Origin: Nemertoderma westbladi
Lineage: Eukaryota; Animalia; Xenacoelomorpha
NCBI GenBank assembly: GCA_032718475.1
Contig: JAUCBJ010005964.1
Coordinates: forward strand, 1-49,164
Length of the DNA: 49,164 nt
Reading direction: 5' to 3'
The notes beneath the pieces are model-generated. The model saw nothing but the letters and a program-made list of their open reading frames with translations, was not told the DNA's origin and searched no databases. The position numbers were made by a program, and so were the translations under genes. Below, one piece after another: positions 5,190 to 39,514 of this stretch (position 1 is the stretch's first letter; each line of letters begins with the position of its first letter).

Positions 5190-5480
5190 CAGGATCTGGC
5201 AGACAGGATGACTACTCCTGTGGTAGGCTAATCCTGTAATCTGACAGTTGGTTAGGTAGGCCTGTCATGTGAGGCCCGGTAGGCCCGGCATACTGGGGAA
5301 TCTTGGACATCTGGACATGACATTTACGATTTACTGCGTTTTGAAATCTGGTATATGACTTACCATAGGGAATGGCTAAAGTTGTGCCTAAACCTGTAAA
5401 CTACGGTAATTAGATAAAGATATTACGATACAATCCCCATTTGTTTCAACAACCTTCTCACCTTCATTTGGTCTTTTTGT

Positions 5481-6270: not shown

Positions 6271-8392
6271 AGTATATAACCAATGAAGTCTGTCAGTTCA
6301 GTGTCTTCGTTACCAACAGAGTAGCCATTATTCTTAGTCGCACGAAGATAGATCAATGGAGACATTGCCCTGGTACGATTAATCCAGCCGACATTGCCTC
6401 CAGGGGAGCAACTCCACAGGAACTGATAGATACTCCAGATTGGTTGGGTGGACCCGACTTCCTGAGCAAGGAAGAGGATGAATGGCCTCCTCACCTTACT
6501 ACGGCAGAGATTAGACAAGCCAAGGGAGCGGAGAAAGTCAAACCTAAAACCCGGGCGAGTAATCGAAGTTATTTAAACCTGCGATAGATCTGTCTGTACT
6601 ACATACTTCCGGAGATGACGCTTTGGATCCGAAAACCCCAGCCAAAAATAAGTCTGTTGTGGAAATAAGAGAGAGGGATTGGAAATCTGGAATACCAGAT
6701 GTCTCACAAGGACTCTCATCCCTGCTGCAGAGAGCGATACATCACTATAGCTCCTGGAATCGGCTCTGTAAGGCCGTTACATATTTAAAGCGATGTTTTC
6801 ATCATCATTACTCCAGGACGAGGACCACTAGTGATACCGCTCCACTGACATCTGCACAAGTTCATGTTGTTAAAGATCTTCCCAAATACAAGATATCCGA
6901 CAGGTTTCTGAAGGAGAAGATCAGTTACCTGGAGCATGAGGAAACCAATAAGCAGATACTGAGACTCCTGCAATGCTATGAGGATTCCGATAAGTATTTC
7001 CTGTTGTTGAGAAATCCACAGATGCACTTAAGGGATCGTTTCTCTAGCACAATGATAGAGCACAGTGATGGGTTGATACGTGTTGGAGGAAGACTCACTA
7101 ATGCTCCATTATCCTTTGACACTAAATTCCCCATACTCATTAGAAATCTTGAAATACAAATCAAGATGATTGTAGATGTTCACAGTAAACTTTATCATGT
7201 TGGTAGAGAACGAGTTCTTAGCGAAATCCGAACTCGCTATTATTTTTATAAACCCCGTAGAGCTCTGAACCAAGTTCTTAGGAACTGCATACCCTGTAGG
7301 AAAGCATTCAGTAGGCCTTTAACACAGCGAGAGGCAGAATTACCTAGGGAACGAGTAAGCTTCTATGAACCACCCTTTACTAATACCGGTGTGGATTTAT
7401 TTGGCCCTATTGAAGTATATCGTGCCAGGACTATAGTCAAGAGATGGTGTGTCATCTTTGTCTGCATGACTTGTAGAGCTATCCATCTCGATATGGTGAA
7501 CGATCTATCTACCAACAGCTTCGTATTAAGTTTACGCCGACAGATCGCTCGCTTCGGAACTAGTAACACGATGAGATCTGATAAGGGAACGAACTTCATT
7601 GGTGCCAACAACGAAATTCAGGCTTACGTAAAGGATTGGAACCAAAGACAGGTGGATGATCAGCTAAGGATAACAGCGTCTAGCTGGACCTTCAACGCCG
7701 CCGACGCCCCTTAATGGGGAGGAAGTTGGGAGAGATTAATAAGAAGTGTAAAGACCGCATTTCACTTTATAGTGCCGTGCCGCGCGAATCTCACCGACAA
7801 ACTTTTGCGGACGCTAATGGAGGAAATCGCCGCCTATCTCAACGAGAGACCGCTTATGCCAGTCTCATCGAGTCCCGATTCCCTGGAAGCGCTAACACCC
7901 GCGCACTTCCTACTGAAGAAACCTATAGCCATGCTCCCACGATCGGAGATCACCGACGGAGACGAATACTGCTGGCAAACTTGGCAACTTATGCAGTTGC
8001 TATCCCGTCGTTTCGCTGACCATTTTGAAAAACATTATCTGCCCACGCTACAACTTCGAACTAAGTGGTTTGCGCAGCAAGAAAACGTCAGCGCCAGAGA
8101 CATGGTGCTTATTGTGGATTCCGACCTTCCACGTAAGCGGTGGCAGACAGGTCGTATCATCGAGACTCACATCTCGGATGATGGTTTGGTGCGCTCGGTA
8201 GAACTTGTTGTCATGCGGCGTAACTTTAAGAAACCGGGCATAATCTTCGTGACGCAACAGCTCAACCGCCCAGTTGGTCGTTTATGTTTACTGGAAAGAG
8301 ACCGAGAACTCTCCGGAAACTATGGAAGGCAAGATACTCTTCCCACGAGCACCTCCCTAATTCCTCAAACATCTAGGGGCTCCCCAACATAA
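6271..8392 (+). pseudogene. BEL/Pao pol 3' half: RNase H C-terminus, HHCC zinc finger, DDE integrase and DUF5641-like tail
   Basis: Manual translation from 6274 gives FVTNRVAII..QWRHCPGTINPADIASRG..WLGGPDFL..WP; then RVGGRL, H..YHVG..CIPC, GVDLFGP, SDKGTNF, in-frame stop in AP*WGGSWERLIRSVK, LNERPL, LTPAHFL, YLPTLQLRTKW, DGLVRSV. Confidence 0.93.
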
Positions 8393-12200: not shown

Positions 12201-13191
12201 ACGATCAACCAAGCAGGGTGATTCATCCTGTGTGTTGGCTAAGGGCTGCAAAAACCCGAATAGTTCGGCATTTAGACATTTGTGGAATCTATGGAATATG
12301 GAGCTCCGCCAATGAGAGCTGTTTCTCTTTGTGCTGAAAGATACCTGCAACGGCCCACAGGGATCAGTGTGTGTTGGTTTTTCCTATGCCAGAACATCGG
12401 CTTTGGAATCATTCTGTTTTCAGACTTTAGCCGAACATTAGTAGGCTTTGATTATAGAAACGTATAACTGTTATCATAACTCATATCAGTGTGTGTTGTA
12501 TCACAAACACCGCATTATTTTACTGCTATTTACTGTTGGTTATTAATTGTATCAGTTGATTGAATATTGTCATTTGGAGAATACCGATAAATGATCATAA
12601 AACCCCAATCTTCTTGATACACTAAAGGTTAGAGAGACCGGTTACATATAGCAATTGCGACTTACATTATTGTGGTTTGAAGTGAATCTAATGCTATTTC
12701 ATAGATACTACATGAGTCAATTGCCGTTCTCTTTATGTATGAGCAAATTCAGTGACTGTCGGCAGATCAGTGTGCAGTTGTGCGGTACCGGTAGTGTGCA
12801 AGAGTGACTGATAACCAAGCATCTCCTAAAGAATGCGCCTTATACGTGAATCATAAGCCGTACAGTTGTGTTTAGTATAAGTCATAACTCTGTTTACATA
12901 TTTAGAGCGCCACGTCCTAAAGGAACTGTTAATATTTCCCGAAAGTGAATAATATTTGTCAGAGATTATATATTAACGATCAATCGAATAATACAGTAGG
13001 CTTACACCGCAATAAGGTCAGAGCATCCGAATCCAGTCTCCCGGGTATATCCAGCGGGAGAATGATCGCGCATCGGCTGGCTTCGGCTAATGTAGTGCAT
13101 CAAATACTTGTCATAGGCTAAAGTCGATTTACAAACTAAAAGACATATAAATTAGCGGGTTAAACTGCTAAAGGTCTTAAAAGCGCGAACA

Positions 13192-13274
13192 ATGCTTATT
13201 CACTCCATGAGGCTGCCAAAGTACAAGATTATGCACTGGCTGGTCCTCACAGCGAAAGCAATGTCCTGCAAAGC
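13192..13274 (-). mobile_element. 83-bp internal fragment of the same RTE-like LINE as 33459-34617
   Basis: Reverse complement matches 34352-34434 (FAGHCFR.EDQPVHNLVLWQPHGVNKH) with a single mismatch. Confidence 0.93.
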
Positions 13275-13711: not shown

Positions 13712-14392
13712 CAACCAAGTCAAGTAGTAGTCAAGAGCCGAGACAACCAACGCAGCCATGCAGTAGCGCTATCCCTGCATGATCGCTTGAACCAATCACA
13801 GCTCGAGGTTTACCACCACTACGCATCCATGAAGGCTCGACTGGCTGTAGAAGGTAAACTCGTTCAGGAGAAGTTGAGACTGACTCGCGAACAGCTGTCC
13901 GTCTTGGAAACGACCCCCGAACCCACAGAAGTCCAGATCCGATCAGCTGGGCGTTCAGCTGCGATCCAGATATCCAGATCGCCGGATCCAATGCAGAGAG
14001 AGTACAGTGGACTCTCAGACAGTCGATTAATGGTACCCCTACGCTAAGGTTCTTATTACTTCGTGGCTCGCCCTACAATACCTATATACATTGTTTGTTG
14101 TTGTTATTGTATTTACATAATGTATAGAGACTACCTAGTTACGTTGTGTTCCTGTAATAATGTGTACGGTAGAAATACACTAACTTACATAGATTGGATG
14201 CACGATCGAAGGGGTTGCTGAAATAAATAGCGTAACAATAAAAAAAAAGCGAAATAAATGTTTTACATATGAAATTATATTTAACTCCCTAAAAATTCTC
14301 GAAATCAACCGAAATCTCATAAAGCAATAAACTTTATACCAACAACAAACTTTACTAGTAGCTTTGTTATCCAATCCATCAATTAACTGAAC

Positions 14393-15486
14393 ATGGCTCA
14401 TCATGGAATATATAGCGATACAGAAATTAGCATGGAGGAAATTCCAGCAGGATCACCGGAAGGTGTCTATGACGTCATATCGGATAACGCGATTCCACAA
14501 CATACGTCACAGAATGTTATAGGACGCAATAACGCCGTTACTGAGAGACGAGTTGTTTCAGTTAGGAGATGGTGGGTCGGGGTTGTTGGAGGGATCTTGG
14601 TAGTGTTGTTAGTAACAGCGGCACTATCAACATTGTTTGTTATGATGTCTAACAAGAACAATAAAGAATTAAAAGACCAGATTACAATTCAAAATAATCA
14701 TGTCATGGAAAGTATTGGGGATCTAAAGGAAAGAAATAACGAGTTAGGGGAAAGTATTGGGGATCTAAAGGAAAGAAATAACGAGTTAGAGGAAAGTATT
14801 GGGGATCTAACGGAAAGAAATAACGACCTGGAGGACAAGTTGTCGCAGTTTCACCCTGAATTTATTTGTTTAAATACTCAAGTACACACCACCGATTTCG
14901 TCAATCATACGAATGGACTAAATGGTGTCATTAGATGCGACAACTCAGTCCCTGGAGGTCCGTTCCGTGGATAGTAATACAGAGGCGGGTAGAAGGATCA
15001 ATAGATTTCTATCGTGGATGGAGCCAGTATACTATGGGATTTGGTCTTGTGGAGAGCGAGTTTTTTCTAGGTTTGGATAACATCCACAACCTTACCAAAG
15101 CCGGAGTGAAACTGAGGATCGATCTTTGGTCCCGAGGAGAACACAAGTACGCCGAGTATAATAACTTTAGTATCGGTGATTCTAATAGTAATTACACGCT
15201 ACAGATATCCGGATACAGCGGTACAGCTGGTGATTCGATACTTTACGGGAGTCCCGGTGGGCCATGGTACGTCAATGGACAACCGTTCTCAACCTATGAT
15301 CGCAACAACGATGCTTATTCCGGTAACTGCGCCGCCGAAGGGGCTTGGTGGTATCGGGTGTGCAGCCACTCTCATCTAAACGGCGTCTACGGTAGGGCGG
15401 GTACGGTGGGACCTTATTGGTACACATTCACTGACCCTGAGAGATTCGTACCGATGGAGAAAATATAAATGAAGATCAGAGTTTAG
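14393..15486 (+). pseudogene. Intronless type II transmembrane fibrinogen-related (FReD) protein with FIBCD1-like architecture; frameshift and late stop
   Basis: Cytoplasmic N-terminus, TM WWVGVVGGILVVLLVTAALSTLFVMM, heptad repeats, then WIVIQRR..GSIDFYRGW..Y..GFG..EFFLGLDNIH..YSGTAGDS..FSTYDRNND..NCA..GAWWY..CSHSHLNG; TCCGT duplication at 14959-14968 shifts the frame; ends EKI*MKIRV*. Confidence 0.9.
14708..14826 (+). repeat. Three 42-bp in-frame repeats encoding a coiled coil (ESIGDLKERNNEL)
   Basis: gaaagtattggggatctaa(a/c)ggaaagaaataacga present three times. Confidence 0.95.
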
Positions 15487-17354
15487 CGAATCTACTATTG
15501 TTAACTATTAACTATATTATTATTATTATTAAGTTTTAATTCGCCATATAGATCGCATAGATTATATATAGAGACCCACAATACTTAGTACAATATTTAA
15601 GAAATGTATATTAATTATAATTACGCAGTAACGTATTCATATTATATATATATAATATATATAGTAAAGTAAATCATGAACTGACAAAAGCGAGAGCATT
15701 TGCCGTATCCTAGACGACAGGCAAAAATAATTTATTGCACAAACGATATAATTATCATAGTAGGAACCGAAGGTTCCTTTCTGTAATAAGAATGCCAAAT
15801 ACTCCATTTAATCTAGCAAAACAAAGAAAAGTAATTCGCAATTAATACAAACCATGTTTTATTGATACAATAAATTCTACTTTATTTATTACATTTCTTA
15901 TTTTTTCACGAAAATTCTACAGAAATTGTCACTTTGCTGACTTTACTGTGCCCAACGAAAGTTATAGTAACTGTAAGTCGCATACATTATAGTAATTACA
16001 ATTTGCTAGTTAACGGAGAATCAAAAAAACAATTTGGTTTAGATAAATTGCGAATTAGTTTTGGGTAGATTTATTGGTGTATACTATGATATCATGGCAT
16101 TTTACTAAGTAGATATATTATACCGGTACTGTTTGATAAATAATAATAAATCACTCAATGATTTATTTATCAGTGATATTATTGTCTTATAGTACCCGCA
16201 CTAAGTTATTGTTTTGATATGTTTATTACTAACTAATTTTGCTACGATTTCTGCCAAGCAAGTTTTCGCAATAAGGTCTATTCTAGAACCGCCATCATTA
16301 CACCATCACTCTTAATATAATTAAATGTCTTCTAAAAATCATAAACTTCTCTGTCCTGGAAAGTCTATGGTGATAATGTTGAAAATTTCCGCATTAAACT
16401 TTTGCGGAATTTCGCGGAAAAAAATTCGTAGATGAAAATTAGCATTTATCGCATGCCGCACAACATGCAGCACCCGAAACTCTTTTATTTGTATTAAAAA
16501 ATATTTGTAAATAAATTGAGTTACTATATTCAGGGTTATGGTGTATAGAATATGTTGTGTAAACTCGTTCTGTTGCAGCCAATATTAAACCTAGGGTACG
16601 CGATTTATTAATGTTACTGTAAGACAAATAGGCTATCTGTATTATAGACCTAGTTTTAGATCATTGATATTTTACAAGTAAAAAATAACAGATTAAAAAC
16701 AGAAGAATAAAAACAGCCACTTATTTATTCATCTGTAGCTAATTATTGTAAAAAAACCTAATGAAATTATTTGTCATTTTGGTTGCTTTTTTTGTAGAAT
16801 TCATGTAAATGGTATTTCTATTGGAGGGTCCCGTTCTCAGACATTACGGTGGACAACTGTAGGACAACAACATCCATAACAAAATATCAGTTTCAATCAA
16901 GTTTAGTTTTTATATTAAAGTGCAAAAATTGCTAGAAAACCATTGAATTCAAAATAAATTGATAGTAAAAATATTATTAGATAGTAAAAATATTATTAGA
17001 TTTGTTTTAGATTTATCAGTAAATAAAGGTTTTGCGCTGTAAATTATTTATTTTATCTGGATAATGTTTCGTTCCCAAACAACATACGGCAGTGGAACCG
17101 CAATGTCTGCGACTGAATTGTCTGTCACTGTATTGTCTGAGATCAAATGGTCCAAATAGTAATTTTACTTTTTTTCACTTTGTTGTATATAAAAGTAGTA
17201 ACATTTGTGGCGTAAATTGCATAACATGTATCTGTTTTACCATGAAAAGATTTTTTATGGAATAACTTAACTCATTTTCCATTTAATTTATCAAGTTTAC
17301 TTGTTAAACCATTGATGAATCTATTTATTGGTGTCAGTCCATGTATTTTTTATG

Positions 17355-18104
17355 AAAATACATACATAGGCCCCACACCTAATATACAAACACATTTAGT
17401 GTAGTACCGGTACCATATTATTATACATACTGTATGTATTAAACTTGTATCCATTCTTATTAAAATACATACATAGGCCCCTCACCTAATATACAAACAC
17501 ATTTAGTGTAGTACCGGTACCATATTATTATACATACTGTATGTATTAAACTTGTATCCATTCTTATTAAAATACATACATAGGCCCCTCACCTAATATA
17601 CAAACACATTTAGTGTAGTACCGGTACCATATTATTATACATACTGTATGTATTAAACTTGTATCCATTCTTATTAAAATACATACATAGGCCCCTCACC
17701 TAATATACAAACACATTTAGTGTAGTACCGGTACCATATTATTATACATACTGTATGTATTAAACTTGTATCCATTCTTATTAAAATACATACATAGGCC
17801 CCTCACCTAATATACAAACACATTTAGTGTAGTACCGGTACCATATTATTATACATACTGTATGTATTAAACTTGTATCCATTCTTATTAAAATACATAC
17901 ATAGGCCCCTACACCTAATATACAAACACATTTAGTGTAGTACCGGTACCATATTATTATACATACTGTATGTATTAAACTTGTATCCATTCTTATTAAA
18001 ATACATACATAGGCCCCTCACCTAATATACAAACACATTTAGTGTAGTACCGGTACCATATTATTATACATACTGTATGTATTAAACTTGTATCCATTCT
18101 TATT
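17355..18104. repeat. 107-bp tandem repeat, 7 copies
   Basis: Unit aaaatacatacataggcccctcacctaat...gtatccattcttatt. Confidence 0.97.
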
Positions 18105-18440
18105 TTCCATTTTATATTACTAGTGTATATTAAAATATTATTGGATCGATGTTCTAACAAATTACTTTAATAATAAGAATGTTATAACAAACAAATCTAC
18201 TCTCTCTAACCGGTGAGGCAGAAAAACAGCCTACGAACAGACAAAACTCATCAGAAAAACAATCCCGCGCAGCAAATCCTAAACTAATAACGCTGATGGT
18301 CCGACTATATCCGTAAACTTGCCGCGGTGTGATTTATATGGGGGTGGGTTTGCTAGCTAAATACTAGCGAGCTATTCAGCAGACCAAAATTCACAGTCGT
18401 ATATATAATAGAAAAGAAACAAAACAAGGTTCTAGAACAC

Positions 18441-18549
18441 GAGTGTGTGTGTGTGTGTGTGTGGGGGGGGGGGGGGTGTATGTGTGTGTAGGGGTGTGTG
18501 TGTGTGTGTGTGTGTGTGGGGGTGGGGGTGTGTGTGTGTGTGGGGTGTG

Positions 18550-18584
<35 letters not shown>

Positions 18585-18594
18585 GCGTGTAGGG

Positions 18595-18625
<31 letters not shown>

Positions 18626-18638
18626 GTGTGTGGTGTGT
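18441..18638. repeat. Compound (TG)n/poly-G microsatellite (candidate empty target site)
   Basis: Directly visible; preceded by aacacg, as are the other two tracts. Confidence 0.95.
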
Positions 18639-18855
18639 CAATTTAAATCGAACAAAAAGGCAGAACATAAACAGTAAACAGTAAAAAATATACACCTTTT
18701 TATTTGGGGTTGGTGGCCGGTAGGGCGAAAAATCGAATGCTAGACTGCTAAAATAAGTCTGATCACCCCTCTGTACATACTGTAGGTCTAATACTCACAA
18801 ATGTTGAATTTATATTGAATTATTTATTATTTTTATTATTATTTTAATAAATTTC

Positions 18856-19661
18856 AATCCATGGAACGGTGTCAAACAGGTGTCCCTTCTGTCTCCGTGG
18901 CTTTTAACTATTACATAAAGGAGGCACTAGAGAAGCTAAAGGAAGCTGGATTTGGTTGCAGTATCAGGGATACTTGGTTAGGAGTAATCAACTATGCGGA
19001 TGATTTACTGCTACTAGCGACAAGTGGCGATGAAATAGAGCACATGATGAATATTCTGTAGCAGGAACGTTCTAAGTTGGGACTGGCCGTGAGTGCAGCG
19101 TAGACTGCCTGGACAGCGATTGGGTCAGTAAGAATGAAGTTGGTGTCCTTTCCTCATACATTGAAAATCCTTGGAACAGATGTCCGGATGTCTGAGAATC
19201 TATCCTTCCTCTGATACAAGTTGTATCATAAGAGGTTACACGCTCTTGATGAGTGTACTCGCAAGATATCGGCTATTGATGGGATCTTTCATCAGAGGGG
19301 TTGGACCAGGGAACACACTGTAGAAACTTTAAGTTGGCTATGGAACATGGTTGACCTGCCTTGGATTCTTTATGGGATGGAGTTCTACTTGGGTGGATTC
19401 CGTCAGGTTGCCCTGATCTCACTTGATGGTCACTGCAGAAGAGTCATGCGAGGTCTTCTTTACTGCAACAACTATGTGTCATCAGCTGTGCTGCGTCTGT
19501 TGTTTGGGTCACAGTCAATTAGCGAATCAACGTTCACCCGATGCCTTGGACTGATCTCGAGAATTAAATTATGTCCTAAATCAGTGGTGCAGTGGGGCCT
19601 CCGCTATCTCCTTGCAACCAACCAATTAAGAATGCCATTAAGGACACCATCAAGGATGTAA
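18856..19661 (+). pseudogene. Degraded non-LTR retrotransposon reverse transcriptase
   Basis: NGVKQ(G) frameshifted, FNYYI, GFGCSI..LGVINYADDLLLLA, later P.ILYGME; several stops. Confidence 0.8.
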
Positions 19662-22273
19662 ATTGGTGCTACAGAAATATATTTGGTGCTAAATAAGTTA
19701 TCTTGGTGTCAAATCATCTATTAGTGTCGTAATTAATATACTAGACTACCATTTTGCAAATTTATACATATTCTATAATAGAAGTTAATGAGGTCCCAGG
19801 AGGGAATCTAAGTCGCAATAGAGTTAAAATTACTAAGACGAGTTGGTAGAATGTTGAAACCGTAATAAAAGGGTATATCTTTTGCGTAGAGGTATAGCCT
19901 ACATAGAGGCTTCATGTAGGTATGTGTAGCCTACATGTAGATGCACGTGTAGGGTGAATGTAGGTAGGTGTAGTCCCATAGATATTAATGTAATTTATGT
20001 GTCAACTTGCAGTAACGTGATACACGGTCGTCAATCAGGATGTATGGCAATAATCTCTGATCTCCACGGTACAATACGGTACATCAACATGCAGACCTGT
20101 CTGCTGTCAGACAACAGGTTTTACTGCATACTGCAGTACTGTATAAATATCAATAAAGTCCCTTACTCGTCATAAATATTATGCCCTAATAAATTTGAGT
20201 ATGCTAACGCCACGAAAGGCATCGTTCCATTAGATTAACTCGTTCTGATTTATATGTTTATTGAGTAAGAGTAACCTAAACAAGAACAGCCATCATCGCG
20301 GGGACTATAGTCTACCAGAAACCCTGACCCCCCTCTGCCCCTCTTTATCTGTTTATCAACCATACATCCATGGGACTTGAACAGTACTTCAGCATTGAAA
20401 TGTTTTGGACGTTTTGTTTTGAAAGTAAAAATATAGAAGTCTGGAAGTTTTGTTTGTTTTAAACATTCCACCAACCAGCAACAGTCCCATCCCTTCCCAC
20501 TATCCCGCGGACCACCACACTGTTTCATTATAAAGTATTCCCATCTCGATGATAGGAATTAATCAGTAATCCGATGGGATTCAAATCCCATCTCGAAGTA
20601 ACAGCAAAACAATAACACGAAAGTCAATAGCTTTACAGTTATATTTGATTGCATTGAAAGTTAATAGAAAGAAGAAGTTAAATTGCATATCCATTAAAAT
20701 ATCATGAAATTGATACGGCAGTTTAGTAGATTAAAACGGCCACAGCAAGATTTATAAAATGAAAAATAAGTAAAATCAGCACAGCACACAATATTATCAA
20801 TATAGACATTGAAGACAATTTAATAAACAAATACTATAAAAAAATATCTACTAACAATCAATACATGATATATATAATATATATAATATATATACTCAAA
20901 TGATGAATATTTGTGTTGGACAAGTTTTGGTGGCATCAGGACCATCATTTCATGCACCAGAGACCCATATAAACATGGAATGTAGTGATGATGATGATGA
21001 AATGAAAAGCGGTAATGTAAATTTGCAATTTAAAGATAATTTTCAATATGTTTGGGTTTGCCAAGGTCTCAAACTCAAAAACTTATTTCTTGACTTTGAG
21101 ACCTTGACAAACACAACCACATTGATGAATTTATGTCATTGAGGCCTTTACTAAAGAGCTGGAAATTCTGTACAAGGTTCCAAAATTACATACCTATACC
21201 TTCAGTAGTTTTTGAGAAATATGTACATGAATGAAACTGGCACGTGATAAATGCAAGCAGCAGAAAATGACCTTTACGGTAAGGGGAGCAGTACAGTGGG
21301 GGAGTACAGAGAAGTACAGGGGAGGACATACAGTGCGAGATCCCATGTAAAATACCATTCGTATCATTGTTTACTTAGGTGCATTTTTCGAGAAATGTGT
21401 TCATTGGATTTGCTTCAAATTTGGAACATGGAGCAATATGAATTTAGATAACCCAAAAACGACCTATCACGCACTGAAAATTTGGCTCAAGCATGAGTTC
21501 CAATGATGACAGGTCACTAAAGTGCAGATTTTAAGGAGAATATTACCAGGAATGCACTCAGAAAGTTTCAATGGATTATATTCACCCAATCCTGAGAAAA
21601 GTGCACCCAAACGTTGGAAAATAATGTTTCGCATAAAATTAATATAAAGAGTAATATATCGAGAAATGTATAGAAATCATAGATGTCACTAAAGCTCTTA
21701 CAACTAATCAGTAATACCATCTAAAACATTCCTTCTCCATATTCAATTTCATTCCTCCATATTCAGTCAGCCAGCCAGCCAGCCATGAGCGATTCTTATA
21801 GTAAGTCTGTCAGTTCCTAAGTAGTGATGGGCCTAGGGGCCCAATAAGGAACCGACCTTTTATTATATAAAAATGTCTTCAACCGGCATTATTAGACTGG
21901 GTATGGAAAAATCTTGCAATAAAAAGTTTTACTATATGCAAGGGGTGAAGTAAAGTACTTTTTAAAGTGTGGAAATAATATAGATTTGTCTCTTTCCCAA
22001 CAAAATTCTTATGAAGCAAAAATTAGACTTTTTTTAGGGGTGGGTGTGTTCGGACAACTTTTGCCTCAACCTCATAACTTTTGACAGAATGACATTCATT
22101 GAATATAACTTACATATTCGGAATCTGCATTAAATTGTAGTTTACAATCAATAAAAAATAAAAAAATTGATTTTTACATTTATGATTTATTTATTTGTTG
22201 AGCCACCTTAATAAAAATGTTAATTCTACTTATTATTGATTATATAGTCGGTTTTACAGTAAGGCATACTTTT

Positions 22274-22495
22274 AGTATTTTAATTCATTAATATTTTTTA
22301 ATCGAAAATGTGGCAAATATTATCAAAAAAAAATTATTGTAATAATAAGAATTTTTTTTGGCAGTAATAATAATTTTATCGCAATAATACTATTAATATT
22401 ATCGCATCAATATTAATTTTATCGCGAAAAAGTTATATTTTTTGTGATAATATTAGCCACTTTTTCGATCAAAAAAACTATTGAATGTTAATACT
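22274..22495. mobile_element. AT-rich MITE-like element with ~60-bp imperfect terminal inverted repeats
   Basis: agtatt..attca.ta..ttttt.atcgaaaa.gtggc.aatattatca.aaaaa mirrored by ttttt.tgataatatt.gccac.ttttcgat.aaaaa..ta.tgaat..aatact. Confidence 0.6.
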
Positions 22496-22696
22496 GCCGC
22501 TCTATTACAGCAGTTAGAATGTGTTGATTTATTTAATCAGTGTCGCCTCGTATAATTACAATTTAATTAATTGTTTCATAAATTTTAATATTATCACTAT
22601 TAATTTTAGAATTTCGATACAAATTATAATAATATTTATAACATTAAGAGCTTCTATCCTCAGAGGAATGGAAAATATTTCAGAGAAAATTATATA

Positions 22697-23426
22697 ATGG
22701 CGACGTGGCGGCACTAGGGTAGAGGAGTGGGACACCTTTATCTGGTGCATGGCGACGTGGCGGCACTAGGGTAGAGGAGTGGGACACCTTTATCTGGTGC
22801 ATGGCGACGTGGCGGCACTAGGGTAGAGGAGTGGGACACCTTTATCTGGTGCATGGCGACGTGGCGGCACTAGGGTAGAGGAGTGGGACACCTTTATCTG
22901 GTGCATGGCGACGTGGCGGCACTAGGGTAGAGGAGTGGGACACCTTTATCTGGTGCATGGCGACGTGGCGGCACTAGGGTAGAGGAGTGGGACACCTTTA
23001 TCTGGTGCATGGCGACGTGGCGGCACTAGGGTAGAGGAGTGGGACACCTTTATCTGGTGCATGGCGACGTGGCGGCACTAGGGTAGAGGAGTGGGACACC
23101 TTTATCTGGTGCATGGCGACGTGGCGGCGCTAGGGTAGAGGAGTGGGACACCTTTATCTGGTGCATGGCGACGTGGCGGCACTAGGGTAGAGGAGTGGGA
23201 CACCTTTATCTGGTGCATGGCGACGTGGCGGCACTAGGGTAGAGGAGTGGGACACCTTTATCTGGTGCATGGCGACGTGGCGGCACTAGGGTAGAGGAGT
23301 GGGACACCTTTATCTGGTGCATGGCGACGTGGCGGCACTAGGGTAGAGGAGTGGGACACCTTTATCTGGTGCATGGCGACGTGGCGGCACTAGGGTAGAG
23401 GAGTGGGACACCTTTATCTGGTGCAT
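22697..23426. repeat. GC-rich 52-bp tandem repeat, 14 copies
   Basis: Unit atggcgacgtggcggcactagggtagaggagtgggacacctttatctggtgc; only one substitution seen (near 23129). Confidence 0.98.
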
Positions 23427-23554
23427 TTATGGGAGATTATTAATATTACTATTATTATTATTTAAGTATTATTCTAATGTAATTTATATCCGATGTTTTG
23501 TGCTTATAATAATAATTTTGCATTGTTTATAGCGGTTTGATGCAATATGGTGAA

Positions 23555-26304
23555 GCCAAATACTCCATTTAATCTAGCAAAACAAAGAAAAGTAATTCGC
23601 AATTAATACAAACCGAGTTTTATTGATACAATAAATTCTACTTTATTTATTACATTCCTTATTTTTTCACGAAAATTCTACAGAAATTGTCACTTTGCTG
23701 ACTTTACTGTGCCCAACGAAAGTTATAGTAACTGTAAGTCGCATACATTATAGTAATTACAATTTGCTAGTTAACGGAGAATCAAAAAAACAATTTGGTT
23801 TAGATAAATTGCCAATTAGTTTTGGGTAGATTTATTGGTGTATACTATGATATCATGGCATTTTACTAAGTAGATATATTATACCGGTACTGTTTGATAA
23901 ATAATAATAAATCACTCAATGATTTATTTATCAGTAATATTATTGTCTTATAGTACCCGCACTAAGTTATTGTTTTGATATGTTTATTACTAACTAATTT
24001 TGCTACGATTTCTGCCAAGCAGGTTTTCGCAATAAGGTCTATTCTAGAACCGCCATCATTACACCATCATCCTTAATATAATTAAATGTCTTCTAAAAAT
24101 CATGAACTTCTCTGTCATGGAAAGTCTATGGTGATAATGTTGAAAATTTCCGCATTAAACTTTCGCGGAAAAAAATTCGTAGATGAAAATTAGCATTTAT
24201 CGCATGCCGCACAACATGCAGCACCCGAAACTCTTTTTTTTGTATTAAAAAATATTTGTAAATAAATTGAGTTACTATATTCAGGGTTATGGTGTATAGA
24301 ATATGTTGTGTAAACTCGTTCTGTTGCAGCCAATATTAAACCTAGGGTACGCGATTTATTAATGTTACTGTAAGACAAATAGGCTATTTGTATTATAGAC
24401 CTAGTTTTAGATCATTGATATTTTACAAGTAAAAAATAACAGATTAAAAACAGAAGAATAAAAACAGCAACTTATTTATTGATCTGTAGCTAATTATTGT
24501 AAAAAAACCGCATGAAATTATTTGTCATTTTGGTTGCTTTTTTTGTAGAATTCATGTAAATGGTCTTTCTATTGGAGGGTCCCGTTCTCAGACATTACGG
24601 TGGACAACTGTAGGACAACAACACCCATAACAAAATATCAGTTTCAATCAAGTTTAGTTTTTATATTAAAGTGCAAAAATTGCTAGAAAACCATTGAATT
24701 AAAAAATAAATTGATAGTAAAAATAGTATTAGATAGTAAAAATATTATTAGATTTGTTTTAGATTTATCAGTAAATAAAGGTTTTGCGCTGTAAATTATT
24801 TATTTTATCTGGATAATGTTTCGTTCCCAAACAACATACGGCAGTGGAACCGCAATGTCTGCGACTGAATTGTCTGTCACTGTATTGTCTGAGATCAAAT
24901 GGTCCAAATAGTAATTTTACTTTTTTTCACTTTGTTGTATATAAAAGTAGTACAATTTGTGGCGTAAATTGTATAACATGTATCTGTTTTACCATGAAAA
25001 GATTTATTGATGGACTAACTTAACTCATTTTCCATTTAATTTATCAAGTTTCCTTGTTAAACCATTGATGAATCTATTTATTGGTGTCAGTCCATGTATT
25101 TTTTATGAAAATACATACATAGGCCCCACACCTAATATACAAACACATTTAGTGTAGTACCGGTACCATATTATTATACATACTGTATGTATTAAACTTG
25201 TATCCATTCTTATTAAAATACATACATAGGCCCCTCACCTAATATACAAACACATTTAGTGTAGTACCGGTACCATATTATTATACATACTGTATGTATT
25301 AAACTTGTATCCATTCTTATTAAAATACATACATAGGCCCCTCACCTAATATACAAACACATTTAGTGTAGTACCGGTACCATATTATTATACATACTGT
25401 ATGTATTAAACTTGTATCCATTCTTATTAAAATACATACATAGGCCCCTCACCTAATATACAAACACATTTAGTGTAGTACCGGTACCATATTATTATAC
25501 ATACTGTATGTATTAAACTTGTATCCATTCTTATTAAAATACATACATAGGCCCCTCACCTAATATACAAACACATTTAGTGTAGTACCGGTACCATATT
25601 ATTATACATACTGTATGTATTAAACTTGTATCCATTCTTATTAAAATACATACATAGGCCCCTACACCTAATATACAAACACATTTAGTGTAGTACCGGT
25701 ACCATATTATTATACATACTGTATGTATTAAACTTGTATCCATTCTTATTAAAATACATACATAGGCCCCTCACCTAATATACAAACACATTTAGTGTAG
25801 TACCGGTACCATATTATTATACATACTGTATGTATTAAACTTGTATCCATTCTTATTTTCCATTTTATATTACTAGTGTATATTAAAATATTATTGGATC
25901 GATGTTCTAACAAATTACTTTAATAATAAGAATGTTATAACAAACAAATCTACTCTCTCTAACCGGTGAGGCAGAAAAACAGCCTACGAACAGACAAAAC
26001 TCACCAGAAAAACAATCCCGCGCAGCAAATCCTAAACTAATAACGCTGATGGTCCGACTATATCCGTAAACTTGCCGCGGTGTGATTTATATGGGGGTGG
26101 GTTTGCTAGCTAAATACTAGCGAGCTATTCAGCAGACCAAAATTCACAGTCGTATATATAATAGAAAAGAAACAAAACAAGGTTCTAGAACACGTGTGTG
26201 TGTGTGTGTGTGTGTGGGGGGGGGGGGGGGTGTATGTGTGTGTAGGGGTGTGGGGGTGTGTGTGTGTGTGTGGGGGTGGGGGTGTGTGTGTGTGTGGGGT
26301 GTGT
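23555..26304. repeat. 2.8-kb duplicated segment, copy S2, joined through its (TG)n tract to the YR element
   Basis: Near-identical to 15794-18638; (TG)n tract at 26194-26304. Confidence 0.96.
25108..25857. repeat. 107-bp tandem repeat, 7 copies (paralogue of 17355-18104)
   Basis: Same unit and same variant copies (1st and 6th) as the first array. Confidence 0.97.
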
Positions 26305-26318
26305 TCTGCCGGATGGTG

Positions 26319-26773
26319 CAAACCGGGGAGACATACTGTACTTTTGACCCGCAAAGCGGGGAGCGATTTCAAACCGGGGAGCTCCCCGGTTTGTAAGACG
26401 TCTATAATCATATTAAGGAGGTCAAATATAATCAGTATGACGTCATTTTTTATAAATATAATTTTATTTTATATCATCCCCGGTTTGTGTTTATGAAGCG
26501 AACTTGGTGTGTCTATGAATGTGGAGTGTATCGGAATTTATGGTCCCCGGTTTGTGTGAAAAATATCCGTGCTCCCCGCTTTGTAATATTCGCCGCTAGA
26601 TGTCGCAAAATCGTAGGTGAAAAATTATACGAAGCCAATAACGGAGTGTGACAGTCCCCGGTTTGCTACTATCCCGCCTAGCAGCCTAGTAAGAACTAAG
26701 TAGATTACCTGTACCTCTACATATGTCGCAAATTTCCATAAACCAATAATTGAGTGTGTCGCTCCCCGGTTTG
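26319..26773. repeat. Subterminal motif cluster: 9 copies of TCCCCG(G/C)TTTG, including the perfect 24-bp palindrome at 26370-26393
   Basis: Copies at 26319, 26352, 26370 (inverted) and 26383, 26477, 26544, 26573, 26655, 26763. Confidence 0.9.
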
Positions 26774-27362
26774 AAAATGTTGTGCCTTTATTTTGTTAGT
26801 AGAAATGCATGGCTAATTACATGTATTTTAATTAAACATATCAATATGTTCAAAAACTGTTCCAATATGTACGACGCTAATGAAAATCAACTCTAATAAA
26901 AAAATTTTCCTTCGTTTGCAGAGATGGTGTATACATATGTGCACTTTTCCTCATGTTGTATTTTTTATTCCAGCAAAATCATATCTTTAAAAGTGTCCTT
27001 AAATTTTGCATGTATGTATAAGGCCCAGGACGCATCGTGTGCCCTAGGGGTCTCATCATGTGAAAAAAAAAGTTTCCAGGGGAACTTGTTTTTGAAAAAA
27101 ATACGATATAATTGAAGTCAATAAAACCATAATAGATACAAACTTGCGGTTTCCCAACTCAAATAAAGGGTTAGGTGAGCACACTACTATGGTTAATTAG
27201 AAAATTCAGTTACATAAGACGCTGCAAAAATTTACGTTAATTACGCTAATCTAACGTTATAGACTATCTTGTCTTCGGTTAGGGAAAAAGTTTCAAAAAA
27301 ATAAATTTTCCAACCGTTTCATAACAGTTCAATAGCTAAATGTCCACAAAACATTAATCCTA

Positions 27363-27601
27363 AACGTAAAGCTGACGTTTAATTAAATTAAATGTTAATT
27401 AAGCAACTCCTGAAAGTTCATCTCATCCACGCCACGCCCTACATTTAGATCTAACCGGGAGTCGTTGCTCATATACTACTCTCCTTCCATATGATTAACT
27501 TTAATAATATGAATTCAGTTATGTTCCCCGCTTCGATAACGAAAATAAATGTCTGTGTCAACAAGCATTGTTTTGGGTTAACAAAACGATGTACTTTTTG
27601 T
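27363..27601. repeat. ~240-bp direct repeat DR1 flanking the 30-bp array
   Basis: aacgtaaagc...gatgtactttttgt repeated at 31322-31557. Confidence 0.93.
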
Positions 27602-30600
27602 AATCAGTACTACAAAATACGAACAACTGGTAATCCGTACTACAAAATACGAACAACTGGTAATCAGTACTACATAATACGAACAACTGGTAATCAGTAC
27701 TACAAAATACGAACAACTGGTAATCCGTACTACAAAATACGAACAACTGGTAATCAGTACTACAAAATACGAACAACTGGTAATCCGTACTACAAAATAC
27801 GAACAACTGGTAATCCGTACTACAAAATACGAACAACTGGTAATCAGTACTACATAATACGAACAACTGGTAATCAGTACTACAAAATACGAACAACTGG
27901 TAATCCGTACTACAAAATACGAACAACTGGTAATCAGTACTACATAATACGAACAACTGGTAATCAGTACTACAAAATACGAACAACTGGTAATCCGTAC
28001 TACAAAATACGAACAACTGGTAATCAGTACTACAAAATACGAACAACTGGTAATCCGTACTACATAATACGAACAACTGGTAATCAGTACTACATAATAC
28101 GAACAACTGGTAATCAGTACTACATAATACGGACAACTGGTAATCAGTACTACATAATACGAACAACAACTGGTAATTAGTACTACAAAATACGAACAAC
28201 TGGTAATCCGTACTACATAATACGAACAACTGGTAATCCGTACTACATAATACGAACAACTGGTAATCAGTACTACATAATACGAACACAACTGGTAATT
28301 AGTACTACAAAATACGAACAACTGGTAAACCGTACTACATAATACGAACGACTGGTAATCAGTACTACACAATACGAACGACTGGTAATCAGTACTACAA
28401 AATACGAACAACTGGTAATCAGTACTACAAAATACGAACAACTGGTAATCAGTACTACACAATACGAACGACTGGTAATCAGTACTACATAATACGAACG
28501 ACTGGTAATCAGTACTACATAATACGAACGACTGGTAATCAGTACTACATAATACGAACAACAACTGGTAATCCGTACTACATAATACGAACAACAACTG
28601 GTAATTAGTACTACAAAATACGAACAACTGGTAATCAGTACTACAAAATACGAACAATTGGTAATCAGTACTACATAATACGAACAACTGGTAATCCGTA
28701 CAACAAAATACGAACAACTGGTAATCCGTACTACATAATACGAACAACTGGTAATCCGTACTACATAATACGAACAACAACTGGTAATCAGTACTACATA
28801 ATACGAACAACTGGTAAACCGTACTACATAATACGAACAACTGGTAAACCGTACTACATAATACGAACAACAACTGGTAATCAGTACTACATAATACGAA
28901 CAACAACTGGTAATCAGTACTACATAATACGAACGACTGGTAATCAGTACTACATAATACGAACGACTGGTAATCAGTACTACAAAATACGAACAACTGG
29001 TAATCAGTACTACACAATACGAACGACTGGTAATCAGTACTACATAATACGAACGACTGGTAATCAGTACTACATAATACGAACAACTGGTAATCCGTAC
29101 TACATAATACGAACAACAACTGGTAATCCGTACTACATAATACGAACAACAACTGGTAATTAGTACTACATAATACGAACAACTGGTAATCAGTACTATA
29201 TAATACGAACAACTGGTAATCCGTACTACAAAATACGAACAACTGGTAATCAGTACTACAAAATACGAACAACTGGTAATCAGTACTACATAATACGAAC
29301 AACTGGTAATCCGTACTACATAATACGAACAACAACTGGTAATCCGTACTACATAATACGAACAACAACTGGTAATCCGTACTACATAATACGAACAACA
29401 ACTGGTAATCAGTACTACATAATACGAACAACTGGTAATCAGTACTATATAATACGAACAACTGGTAATCAGTACTACAAAATACGAACAACTGGTAATC
29501 AGTACTACAAAATACGAACAACTGGTAATCAGTACTACATAATACGAACAACTGGTAATCCGTACTACATAATACGAACAACAACTGGTAATCCGTACTA
29601 CATAATACGAACAACAACTGGTAATTAGTACTACAAAATACGAACAACTGGTAATCAGTACTACAAAATACGAACAACTGGTAATCAGTACTATATAATA
29701 CGAACAACTGGTAATCAGTACTACAAAATACGAACAACTGGTAATCAGTACTACAAAATACGAACAATTGGTAATCAGTACTACATAATACGAACAACAA
29801 CTGGTAATCCGTACTACATAATACGAACAACAACTGGTAATTAGTACTACAAAATACGAACAACTGGTAATCAGTACTACAAAATACGAACAATTGGTAA
29901 TCAGTACTACATAATACGAACAACTGGTAATCCGTACAACAAAATACGAACAACTGGTAATCCGTACTACATAATACGAACAACTGGTAATCCGTACTAC
30001 ATAATACGAACAACAACTGGTAATCAGTACTACATAATACGAACAACTGGTAAACCGTACTACATAATACGAACAACTGGTAAACCGTACTACATAATAC
30101 GAACAACAACTGGTAATCAGTACTACATAATACGAACAACAACTGGTAATCAGTACTACAAAATACGAACAACTGGTAATCCGTACTACATAATACGAAC
30201 AACTGGTAATCCGTACTACATAATACGAACAACAACTGGTAATCAGTACTACATAATACGAACAACTGGTAAACCGTACTACATAATACGAACAACTGGT
30301 AAACCGTACTACATAATACGAACAACAACTGGTAATCAGTACTACATAATACGAACAACAACTGGTAATCCGTACTACATAATACGAACAACTGGTAAAC
30401 CGTACTACATAATACGAACAACTGGTAAACCGTACTACATAATACGAACAACTGGTAAACCGTACTACATAATACGAACAACAACTGGTAATCAGTACTA
30501 CAAAATACGAACAACTGGTAAACCGTACTACATAATACGAACAACTGGTAAACCGTACTACATAATACGAACAACAACTGGTAATCAGTACTACATAATA

Positions 30601-31157
30601 CGAACAACAACTGGTAATCCGTACTACATAATACGAACAACAACTGGTAATCAGTACTACAAAATACGAACAACTGGTAAACCGTACTACATAATACGAA
30701 CAACTGGTAAACCGTACTACATAATACGAACAACTGGTAAACCGTACTACATAATACGAACAACTGGTAAACCGTACTACATAATACGAACAACTGGTAA
30801 ACCGTACTACATAATACGAACAACAACTGGTAATCAGTACTACAAAATACGAACAACTGGTAAACCGTACTACATAATACGAACAACTGGTAAACCGTAC
30901 TACATAATACGAACAACAACTGGTAATCAGTACTACATAATACGAACAACAACTGGTAATCCGTACTACATAATACGAACAACTGGTAAACCGTACTACA
31001 TAATACGAACAACTGGTAAACCGTACTACATAATACGAACAACTGGTAAACCGTACTACATAATACGAACAACAACTGGTAATCAGTACTACAAAATACG
31101 AACAACTGGTAATCCGTACTACATAATACGAACAACTGGTAATCAGTACTACATAAT
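27601..31157. repeat. 30/33-bp minisatellite (more than 110 units) in E1
   Basis: Unit taatc(a/c)gtactaca(a/t)aatacgaacaactgg with +aac and aaacc variants. Confidence 0.98.
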
Positions 31158-31321
31158 TTACTGTCTCTCGCCATAATAATGTATTATAATGCCTTATCTA
31201 TTCACAACTTAGTACATAGTTTCCTGCACAATACAAATACAATACAAATACAATACAAATAAAACATTTGTATATTAAAACAAAATACAACAAATATGCA
31301 CAGTAGTTACTACAAAATATG

Positions 31322-31557
31322 AACGTAAAGCAGACGTTTAATTTAATTAAATGTTAATTAAGCAACTCCTGAAAGTTCATCTCATCCACGCCACGCCCTA
31401 CATTTAGATCTAACCGGGAGTCGTTGCTCATATACTCTCCTTCCATATGATTATCTTTAATGATATGAATTCAGTTATGTTCCCCGCTTCGATAACGAAA
31501 ATAAATGTCTGTGTCAACAAGCATTGTTTTGGGTTAACAAAACGATGTACTTTTTGT
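31322..31557. repeat. ~240-bp direct repeat DR2, just downstream of the YR stop codon
   Basis: Matches 27363-27601. Confidence 0.93.
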
Positions 31558-32315
31558 CAGCTACTTGTGTTTTAGTTGTTTTTCACTGATAGCTCTTCTA
31601 AGATTTTCTTCCGATTGTTCCGATAATAGTCTTTGACATTTCGCCATGTTCTACCACTTAGCACGGGATTTTCAATTATTAACTTTTCCAGAGGATCTTT
31701 ACCTGGTAGCTTTTCAAGTAAAAGCATCTCCTGAATTCCATTAAGATTCGTCAAGGCCGTTGATTCCGCCATGGTCCAGGGTCTTTTTATTATTGGTTTG
31801 CGTACCGGTACTGAATAAAAAAAGATAGATGTGAATAAGTAACGTTATCAGTTTATCACGTTTAGGATACCATAAGCACAATAATATGATTATAATATTT
31901 AATGCCAAAATGTGCCATTTTTCTATTTAATTTCTAATAAGGTGCTTACAATGTAGCATTGTAACATGAATGAAATATTAATATTATGGAATTAAATAAG
32001 TATAACAGCAATTTATTGCACACTACTACTATTTATACAAACAAGCAGTACTCTTCTTGTTCTTGGCTAAAGTACAAGATGCTGAATTCTTTACAGCAAC
32101 AGTACAAATAAAGTTAATTTCCCATAGAGTAAAATAATTATTCATTAATATAATGTTACCGTTTCGATAAAAACAATGACGGTGAATTTCATTGAAAAAA
32201 GTTATGTTAATTGACATTATTTTCTATTATCAAAACGGGGAATTTTTAAAAAGAATAAGACATGAATACCTAAAATTTTCATGTTATTAATAAAAGTTCA
32301 GTTTTTAAGCACAAA

Positions 32316-32422
32316 ATAGTCGGCTGAAGCCTGAGGCTACCCGAAGGTAGGGGTGGACGCTACTCCTATCCTAAGAATTGCTCCCAGTTATTTAACTGGT
32401 ACTCATTTTATCGACCTCAGGG
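32316..32422 (-). mobile_element. SINE central-domain-like fragment in YR intron 2 (also at about 44050-44156)
   Basis: The minus strand reads gaggtcgataaaatgagtaccagttaaataactggg, which resembles the conserved core of Deu/Nin-type SINEs as I recall it. Confidence 0.45.
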
Positions 32423-32565
32423 CAGGGACTTGCATCGAATCGAATCGAAAGCAATTTTTCGTCTTCTATTTCCCATATATTTTTCGATTCGATTTCGATT
32501 CGATTCAGCACAATTTCGATTCGACTCAAGTAAAAAATTTCGACTTCGATTCGATTATTCGACCT
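32423..32565. repeat. (TTCGA)-rich MITE-end-like repeat in YR intron 2 (also at about 44157-44299)
   Basis: cagggacttgcatcgaatcgaatcgaa followed by many ttcga units. Confidence 0.55.
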
Positions 32566-33458
32566 ATGAATATTAACTTAATTATTTGTCATTAAATATA
32601 CATTATAAATTGTATTCTTAACCTGTATTTTCAAAATTCGATATGCCAATAGCTCTGCTCGTGGATGAAGTAGGGGATGGCCGACCAATACTCCTATGAT
32701 CATCAATCCCATCAACACCAATTTGAACAGCAGCAGCAACTTGATCATAACCTTCTATTTGAGTAACAGGTTCGACGTCAGAATCTGAATCTGAATTGTC
32801 CATAAGGTGGTCTATAAATGAAAAGAATGAAAATTATTGTAAAATGTAGGAATGGAAAGATAATACATAACCTAGAAATTGTAAGTTGAAATCCCATCTC
32901 GCCAAATTTAATTTTCTCCTTCATGTTAAATTATCAATTTAGGGATGCAGATTAAAGTCGCACGTTATTCCAACCAAAACAATAAACCCAATCAATAGAA
33001 CAGGTTACAGATTCATTGTTGGGAGTAATCAGCTGTTATTTGCTTCGATTTACCCCATTTTGATTGCGCTGGACCCCCCCCCCCCCCCCCCCCTCTTACC
33101 TACAGATAAGATACCTAGATAAATATTAAATAGACACACTCACCTATAGAATTATCATTCAGGATATCCTCCAGATTACGCCCTTTAAATTCAGCCAGGT
33201 TGCCCTTCTCCATTACCATGAACAGCTTGGATAACTTGGTTACCCTCTGGACTTTATCAGGTAAGCGGTAAAACTCTCGATGAACGCGTATGTCGTGGCC
33301 CATAAAACCTGCCAACAGCTCGAGGTCTTGTTCGCTAAGATTTAGCATAGCCACACTTGTGGCAATATGCTTACGTAACTTCGTAGATGTCATAGCCTTT
33401 GGATTTGTGAGGTTGACAACAGAAACAAGGCTGTGCAGAGCATCATATCCTCGGACGT

Positions 33459-34617
33459 ATCCTTCTTCAAGGCCTTTGATTCAGTCTCTCGCTCACGTAT
33501 GTTCAGCATACTTTCATTATATGGGATTCCTGATGAAATTATTGCAGCAATCAGATCAGTATACGATGGTTCGACAACATTTGTGTCTACTGTTGACGGT
33601 GACACAGAACCATTTGAAGTGTTATGGGGCGTCCTCCAAGGAGACACACTTGCACCATTCTTGTTCATTATTGTGGTTGACTATGTTCTACGCATGTCCT
33701 TAGATCATCATAATGATGATGGGGTGATGATAACTCCACCTACTGGCTCCAGAAGTCGAGGAAATCCTGCCAAGTACCTAACTGATCTAGACTTTGCTGA
33801 TGACTTAGGAGTACTCTCAGAATCATTAGAGGGAGCCCAGCGGCTCCTCAGCTCATTAGAACATGCTGCTTCTAGTGTTGGTCTTTTTATTAACTCCAGA
33901 AAGACCAAAATTCTGACAGTTAACTTTGAAAGTCCTCAGCAAGTCTCTGATCGGATGAGCATAAGCTCAAAGGATGGTATGCTTGAGCATGTGGACGACT
34001 TCTGTTACCTGGGATCATGGATCCGGAAGTCAGGTGAGGACCTTCGAATACGTAAGGGAAAGGCATGGGCAGCCTTGAATAGGCTTTCCAGGATTTGGAA
34101 GTCACCTAGAATTAATCGGAAACTTAAGGTCCGATTATTTAGAGCAGCAGTAGTTCCAGTACTCCTCTACGGGAGTCCATGCTGGGCTCTAACTGCTGAG
34201 GATACCAAATCTCTGGATGGCACATTCACAAGAATGCTACGCCGGGTACATTGTGTCAAGTACAATGCACACATCTCCAACCAGACACTATATAACATTG
34301 GAGGTGTCTCATTGGTTCCCCCAAGCTTGACACTAGAACAAAATCGCCTCCGCTTTGCAGGACATTGCTTTCGCCGTGAGGACCAGCCAGTGCATAATCT
34401 TGTACTTTGGCAGCCTCATGGAGTGAATAAGCATGGTGGACAGCCCATGACTTTCTTGAGACGCATCTTAAAGGACACTGGCCTTAAAGATGCGGATGAT
34501 CTAGCAAATGTCATGGGTGATAGGGAGTTGTGGCGGTGCAATTTTGTTGACAAGCCGGCACAGCATTCTTAAAAATGCAGCTGCAATGCAGCATGCCGAT
34601 CCTAGTAGTCCTAGTAG
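33459..34617 (+). mobile_element. 5'-truncated RTE-like LINE with open RT ORF, 13-bp TSD and (CTAGTAGT) tail
   Basis: FKAFDSV, GVLQGDTLAPFLF, DFADD, FCYLGS, VLLYG, RLRFAGH; stop at 34572; TSD tatcctcggacgt at 33446-33458 and 34618-34630; single empty site in copy 2 at 45178-45190. Confidence 0.95.
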
Positions 34618-37840: not shown

Positions 37841-38065
37841 CAATATGGACTGCACTAACAAGTCTCTTTCTGAGTTGATATTGTTTTCGAATACCATCGT
37901 TACAGACGTTTTCTTTCCGAAATCTTTTTCTTATACCATCCATGTTTCTTACTGAGGGAAGGTGGCTAAATATCTCCAATCATCATTTACGTTGTAGTTT
38001 ACGAATAACTCTATCAAAACTAGTTCTACTAATAACTCTATAAGGTAAAACAAACTTGGTACGTA

Positions 38066-38256
38066 CGGGTTGGCATACAATCTTCGCCCGGGGAACCTTC
38101 GCCCGCAAGGCAATCTTCGCCAGTGAGCAACCTTCGCCCAATAAGATTTGTGTTAGTTGCCATTTAAGGTTTCCACCGGGCGAATAGTTGCTCATTTTGA
38201 GGGCGAAGATTGGACGAGGACGAAGCTTTCTCGCCGGTGAAGTTTGCTACGCACCG
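38066..38256. mobile_element. Small MITE with CGG...CCG ends, TA flanks and TTCGCC subrepeats
   Basis: ta|cgggttggcatacaatcttcgccc ... ggtgaagtttgctacgcaccg|ta; ttcgcc repeats on the left, ggcgaa repeats on the right. Confidence 0.65.
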
Positions 38257-39502: not shown

Positions 39503-39514
39503 CATAATAAACAC

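Follow-up and report, generated by a model that had tools for sequence, protein, structure and literature searches.

The stretch of DNA analysed here, referred to as the window, is contig JAUCBJ010005964.1 of Nemertoderma westbladi (assembly GCA_032718475.1), 49,164 nucleotides long and free of Ns. Self-comparison of the window reveals two duplications, one of a host segment (copies S1 and S2) and one of a 12-13 kb element (copies E1 and E2) predicted to encode a tyrosine recombinase (YR). E1 and E2 sit in a TG-rich tract at the end of S2. We consider it probable that the tract at the end of S1 is the empty, likely pre-insertion, counterpart of this tract, E1 and E2 being CryptonV-like YR copies that likely arrived in two events, 46 bp apart. 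An original prediction, made from the letters of the window alone, had already proposed an empty and a filled site here, and its statements about the sequence all check out. The features on which the comparison depends are these.

15794-18441, plus strand: S1, the first host-segment copy by self-comparison, containing a 107-bp x7 array (17350-18104)
18442-18638, plus strand: the TG/G tract of S1, uninterrupted, the empty site (run-length reading)
18542-18549, plus strand: GGGGTGTG in single copy, the empty site of E1, with the insertion point after 18549
18589-18595, plus strand: GTAGGGG, matching the left flank of E2, with the insertion point after 18595
23555-26194, plus strand: S2, the second host-segment copy by self-comparison
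26195-26303, plus strand: left part of the S2 tract, ending in GGGGTGTG
26304-39517, minus strand: E1, a complete YR transposon of 13,214 bp (12,055 bp without a nested long interspersed nuclear element, LINE), with plus-strand ends TTCTGC...CACGTA
39518-39575, plus strand: the 58-bp E1/E2 junction tract, G4 (TG)8 TT (TG)13 CGTGTA G4
39576-49164, minus strand: E2, the second copy, about 1% from E1 and open at the window end

As predicted, a 2.8-kb segment is present twice, at 15794-18550 and 23555-26304, with 98.4% identity over 2760 columns, and past its tract S1 runs into CAATTTAAATCG at 18639, S2 into the element, TTCTGCCGG at 26304. Read by run lengths, the S1 tract is ...G3 (TG)9 TT (TG)10 CGTGTA G4 (TG)7 G17..., followed by the DNA from 18639 onwards. 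S2 has the same lead-in, then G3 (TG)2, E1, the junction tract and E2. The S2 locus thus corresponds to the S1 tract split once behind 18549 and once behind 18595, and the reading of the S1 tract as the empty counterpart of the S2 locus is supported. The resemblance noted between 18542-18595 and 39518-39575 extends to the interruptions themselves and to their order. The signature TT...CGTGTAGGGG occurs at two places only in the window (18563 and 39537) and in none of the 32 tracts of (TG)5 or more in 80 related loci, drawn from the 390 matching stretches of a metagenome scan; the order GGG, TT, CGTGTAGGGG came up in 1.1% of 200,000 shuffles of S1's own interruptions. On the strength of these two controls the match between the S1 and junction tracts is specific.

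TG tracts readily recombine and misassemble, S1 and S2 look allelic, and contigs from the comparison runs (see below) never span a tract. The S1 tract might therefore be a chimera, produced by ectopic exchange or misassembly of unrelated TG tracts, with its likeness to the junction tract incidental. However, what the tracts have in common includes rare interruptions, in order, to the left as well as to the right of E1, and a chimera could touch only the part to the right of 18595, that is, whether the sequence from 18639 follows E2. We hold such an origin to be highly unlikely.

The window contains the whole of E1, whose empty and filled sites can therefore be compared without extending the contig. 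GGGGTGTG stands both before its TTCT... and after its ...CACGTA, and TGTAGGGG stands before the TTCT of E2. The left flanks of E1 and E2 have just the final G in common, so that no invariant target-matched core explains both left junctions. The suggestion that the crossover lies within the TG/GTAGGGG tract holds in so far as the junctions are in the TG tract, but there are two junction positions and the left junction of E1 is GGGGTGTG before TTCT. Compared with S1, the bases added at E1 are GGGGTG without slippage, GGGG if one unit was gained and a perfect 8-bp duplication if one was lost. GTAGGGG itself is found at 18488, 18589, 26242, 39515 and 39569, with T next in every case. The notion that GTA interruptions are scars of earlier visits was set aside, one transition being enough to produce them. 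Some 20 bases to the right of the S1 tract, at 18658-18666, lies GGCAGAACA, the reverse complement of the 9-mer at the left junction of E1, probably by chance.

The ends of the elements were located by comparison with the related loci, six of which, in three families, end at (TG)n. In one family (L021, L022, L023 and L079) homology stops at CACGTA, after which (TG)n follows, in at least three different flanks; L020 terminates in CTCGTA followed by (TG)31; and L030 has its left end at (TG)7 followed by TACGCG. These related elements are from other hosts, at 37-38% protein identity. The outermost [GC]TCC[CT][CA] motif has its start 27 nt from the junction in each of the six loci and at each of the three window ends; 6 of the 64 tract edges have it so placed, against a background of 0.001 per position. 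This register defines E1 as 26304-39517, with ends TTCTGC (26304, and 39576 for E2) and CACGTA (39517), and places GGGG outside the fixed terminus; in the relatives CACGTA precedes TG, not GGGG. Imperfect inverted subterminal repeats, CTCCCCGGTTT...CCAT, lie at a matching distance from both ends, and E1 carries such CTCCCCGGTTT-type repeats at both ends with its YR gene on the minus strand. The YR gene points toward the CGTA/TG end in L020, L021 and L030, and away from that end in E1 and E2. A motif cluster in L063 was dismissed as an element end since it is an internal tandem repeat. By eye, the subterminal region of L020 (11581-11960) seems to contain a pair of blocks that resemble each other, and a (TG)11 tract lies internal to the terminal (TG)31.

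AACACG, said to precede all three TG tracts, is indeed present at 18436, 26189 and 39510, but the 39510 copy is within the element terminus and the others are host flank. The 27-nt motif is missing at both S ends, where AACACG lies, and AACACG at the S tracts is on that account not an element end. As a shared recombination arm it was rejected for its lack of end geometry; the six-base match has p about 2e-4 at a fixed place.

Three readings of the junctions remain: a target duplication; a carried, mismatch-tolerant core as in Tn916; and one insertion only, at GTAGGGG, with a later duplication and a deletion. The last is closest to the idea of the original prediction. It supposes that conservative recombination through a 7-bp core placed a single ancestral copy at GTAGGGG, that this copy was then duplicated by unequal exchange between a right-flank (TG)7 and a left-flank (TG)9, and that about 46-52 bp were deleted beside the left end of E1, and it predicts CACGTAGGGG(TG)n at the right junction of E2. 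The junction tract, GTAGGGG (TG)8 TT ... GTAGGGG, is the expected product of such an exchange, an E1/E2 divergence of about 1% is within the allelic range, and the scheme fits the textbook terminus-target homology of Cryptons and Starships (PMC13465315, PMC10104507). Nevertheless, it requires three events, one being an exchange by way of 14-18 bp and another a deletion that stops exactly at the terminus, and in the relatives it is TG that comes after CACGTA, not GGGG. Furthermore, the comparison of E1 with E2, arrays left out, gives 60 differences in 6215 bases, against 1 in 1092 in the 1.1 kb adjoining the S1 and S2 tracts (Fisher p=0.0009). We judge a single insertion to be unlikely. Since the DNA beside the tracts is closer than are E1 and E2, the divergence of the elements appears to be older than that of the tracts, and this favours a pair of insertions, each from its own donor, later than the split of the tracts. 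E1 and E2 are also unlike in their left junctions and in their nested inserts.

The original prediction had allowed S1 to be either a pre-integration or a post-excision site, and of these the former is favoured. Were S1 a post-excision site, both elements would formerly have lain in its tract and left it precisely. Starships excise cleanly and free of footprint (PMC10104507), so that an empty-looking site is no proof of prior absence. But because S1 retains the segment between both insertion points, two separate clean excisions would be needed, and E1's own YR is broken. We hold excision to be very improbable.

With two insertions into an S1-like tract as the preferred reading, the YR would bind the subterminal repeats, excise the element as a circle, as in the proposed Crypton model, and recombine the circle into TG/G tracts. 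The exchanged overlap would likely be of 4-8 bp and lie outside the fixed termini, and it could not be a single invariant sequence matched by the target at both sites. Either the YR would tolerate mismatch, the circle bringing GGGG or GTAGGGG with it, or it would duplicate 8 bp of the target, which at E1 would be GGGGTGTG. A bolder proposal, which we find possible but doubtful, is that an animal YR transposon integrates without overlap homology in the style of Tn916, that E1 is a local hop carrying GGGG/GTAGGGG from an E2-like donor site to a mismatched TG target at a distance of 46 bp, and that the whole group shares the 27-nt motif-to-junction geometry at both ends.

The predicted recombinase is best preserved in E2, where its frame is open over 1194 codons.

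44847-48431, minus strand: the main YR reading frame of E2, stop-free, with Pro/Thr-rich repeats, a Cys/His-rich region and the YR domain

A Pfam search with the full 1181-residue YR frame returned nothing at E<=0.1. The C-terminal 602 residues have 585 relatives at E<=1e-20 among 7992 scored candidates; those with names are from animals (echinoderms, molluscs, a hemichordate, fish and a frog), and a pattern search of IMG/VR gave 25 matches with no relative among them. R394, R395, K442 and H543 are invariant in all 34 aligned members, and R517 and Y552 are found in 33; among these are the R, K, R, H and Y expected of a YR, to which the catalytic roles belong. The structure model (predicted local distance difference test, pLDDT, 82) matches XerH and Cre in Foldseek (best E 6.8e-4), with the Tn1549 integrase among the weaker matches (E 0.02), and 12 of the 34 aligned members match PF00589 at E<=0.01. 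These results and the conserved residues point to the element encoding a tyrosine recombinase. Further exons of the YR probably lie on the minus strand at 43294-43650 and about 44400-44540, where there are an acidic stretch and a short C-terminal frame (KRPW...RTWRNVKDYYRN). By eye, a frame similar to KRPW...RTWRNVKDYYRN sits downstream of the YR in L075 and L078. No long gene besides the YR was found in the element.

Each copy has been altered in its own way. The YR gene of E1 is broken by a nested fragment.

33459-34617, plus strand: LINE-type reverse-transcriptase fragment in the E1 YR gene, with a 13-bp duplication, TATCCTCGGACGT, at 33446-33458 and 34618-34630

Its site is empty in E2 (45165-45205), making a cleaner empty/filled pair than the TG tracts. 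A DIRS/Ngaro YR retrotransposon was rejected, the sole reverse-transcriptase frame being this nested insert, with its own duplication and absent from E2. The LINE family of this insert is also represented by an inverted 86-bp piece at 13189-13274. The match of E2 to E1 ends at 49099. At the corresponding point, 38633-38635, two contigs of run X2 are interrupted, one of which continues again in the direction of the right end, so that a nested insertion in E2 is likely. Both elements also contain a 30-bp array (116 units in E1, 68 in E2) flanked by a 239-bp direct repeat of 97% identity, at 27363-27601 and 31322-31557 in E1 and at 40623-40858 and 43039-43279 in E2. Within the element, upstream of the YR, 38050-38260 has contig depths in the thousands in X1-X3 and also X4, and is likely a nested high-copy repeat. 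The left end (39579-40850) has about four times the contig depth of the right end (38260-39510) in X1 and X3, and may represent truncated or non-autonomous copies. In X1 the contig depths are 40 at the right end, about 160 at the left end and about 65 in S, with thousands in the repeat near 38100; contig depth is not copy number, and depths were not used as evidence.

The comparison runs X1-X4 represent three samples, X2 and X3 being from a single one, and X1, which matches the window best, may be its source; runs X5-X7 hold next to none of the window's words. Contigs of X1-X3 reach both element ends and stop inside the junction tract (39511-39578), giving no flank sequence. Coverage holes (X4 on the element ends, X1 on 23427-23538) and the lack of an S1-type loose end at 23555 in X2-X4 were not counted as evidence. 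The copies of S are separated as follows.

18639-23554, no strand assigned: U, the DNA between the copies, unrepeated elsewhere in the window, with a 52-bp x14 array (22697-23426)

U is present in all four of these runs, at 0.48-0.61 of its words. The left junction of S2 is bridged by contigs from X2, X3 and X4, and one X1 contig joins S to the upstream flank of S1 (29 of 30 displayed letters match), so that both S-segment junctions are real DNA. S1 and S2 were called paralogous in the original prediction, which is unproven. They differ by 1.7% in their 5' 1.55 kb (26 substitutions), an allele-like distance, about that of S2 from X3 (14 of 1048 letters) and X4 (21 of 1284), and at least 14 of the 26 S1 substitutions recur in X1-X4 (hand count, 40 of 43 rows). 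S1 and S2 are likely the two alleles of a single low-copy locus that were brought into tandem, either through unequal exchange in a repeat, which would be the 52-bp array or the TG tract, or by the assembler. Exchange in the array predicts the sequence from 18639 after E2; exchange in the TG tract does not. What follows E2 bears on how S was duplicated, not on S1 as the empty site of E1. S, alone or with U, was also considered as a non-autonomous member of the YR family and discarded, since the 27-nt motif is absent at both S ends and at the left edge of U and no TG tract precedes 15794.

Elsewhere, the window carries pieces of BEL/Pao retroelements, LINE fragments and a fibrinogen-domain frame, and from these an animal host was inferred. 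The BEL/Pao retrotransposon pieces lie on both strands at 891-8392, separated by a 62-bp x37 array (2887-5189). Just upstream of S1, on the plus strand, 14387-15468 has two overlapping frames with no apparent introns, which encode a hydrophobic stretch, a coiled coil of 42-bp repeats and a fibrinogen C domain (PF00147).

Several observations weigh against two insertions into an S1-like tract by a YR element. Tract lengths slip ((TG)10 versus (TG)13), so that 4, 6 and 8 added bases at E1 are indistinguishable, and the 7-mer at the right of E1, GTAGGGG, is identical to the left flank of E2, so that a single insertion with duplication fits too. Only E1 shows both junctions, the right end of E2 being outside the window. 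No contig of the runs crosses a TG tract, and the tandem order of S1 and S2 is as assembled, unverified. The near-identity of the 3' 1.1 kb contrasts with the 1.7% in the 5' part of S (p=1e-5); if it came from gene conversion or assembly polishing, as it could, the timing argument would be void. The 27-nt placement involves a motif defined post hoc, after the ends were inspected, six loci that amount to three families, and 64 tract edges that include repeats of one family; 74 of the 80 metagenome loci show no element end. For the enzyme, the template-modelling (TM) scores of the fold matches are low (0.25), and the PF00589 match of the window's own YR reaches 17.9 bits, under the curated cut-off of 27.1.

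By its description, CryptonV is the closest analogue, and E1 and E2 would seem to be a new family that works like it. CryptonV, reported to insert in microsatellites (PMC8869645) and listed in tables of PMC4455052 and PMC5753468 (Kapitonov and Jurka 2012, Repbase Reports), is likewise a YR-only DNA transposon in microsatellites, and both window copies and three related families adjoin TG tracts. The 27-nt end register, the G-run-interrupted target and the non-identical junctions are E1/E2 features undescribed in the accessible CryptonV literature; the searchable literature contains no description of CryptonV junctions, although subscription journals, Repbase Reports and supplements outside the search may hold one. 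CryptonF, S and A share with E1 a YR and, on one reading of its junctions, short direct repeats at the ends; they are described with 4-6 bp direct repeats and without terminal inverted repeats, and their circle intermediate is proposed, not shown (PMC3212892, PMC13465315). At E1, a single element with both ends, there is either the 8-bp repeat GGGGTGTG or 4-6 unmatched bases. In contrast to those Cryptons, E1 has imperfect inverted subterminal repeats, CTCCCCGGTTT...CCAT, and one core cannot fit both left junctions.

Starships are eukaryotic YR transposons defined, like E1, by empty/filled comparison, with direct repeats at their edges, but they are fungal and cargo-carrying, with a TTAC target and demonstrated terminus-target homology (PMC10104507). 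None of the 34 aligned YR members matches DUF3435, and no cargo frame was recognised in the element. The YRs of telomere-inserting nimaviruses resemble ours in occurring in animal genomes, in a zinc-binding region and in simple-repeat insertion; those are viral genomes and E1/E2 a 12-13 kb element, the likeness being one of description (PMC10871703). Recombination without coupling-sequence homology, as by Tn916-type integrases, would explain the GGGG(TG) at the right end of E1, by analogy only, for these are bacterial and conjugative, use AT-rich targets and require Xis (PMC5812530). A carried coupling sequence of this kind could be seen in the identity of E1's right GTAGGGG with the left flank of E2, yet an 8-bp duplication fits equally.

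What is known of microsatellite-targeting Cryptons comes mostly from a database report, and as of the 2023 Starship paper the circle intermediate proposed for Cryptons had yet to be demonstrated. Simple-repeat flanks usually conceal element ends; here the G-run-interrupted tract serves as a ruler, with an empty copy nearby, and the 27-nt register provides a rule for locating the ends of these elements. Empty/filled pairs and repeat targeting were already known, and the contribution lies in the two insertion points and the clue to how the overlap is handled. The ruler tract, the adjacent empty copy and the open YR frame of E2 make it testable whether the flanks reflect terminus-target homology, target duplications or carried coupling sequences. 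The window offers a rare before-and-after view of the likely mode of insertion of little-studied elements.

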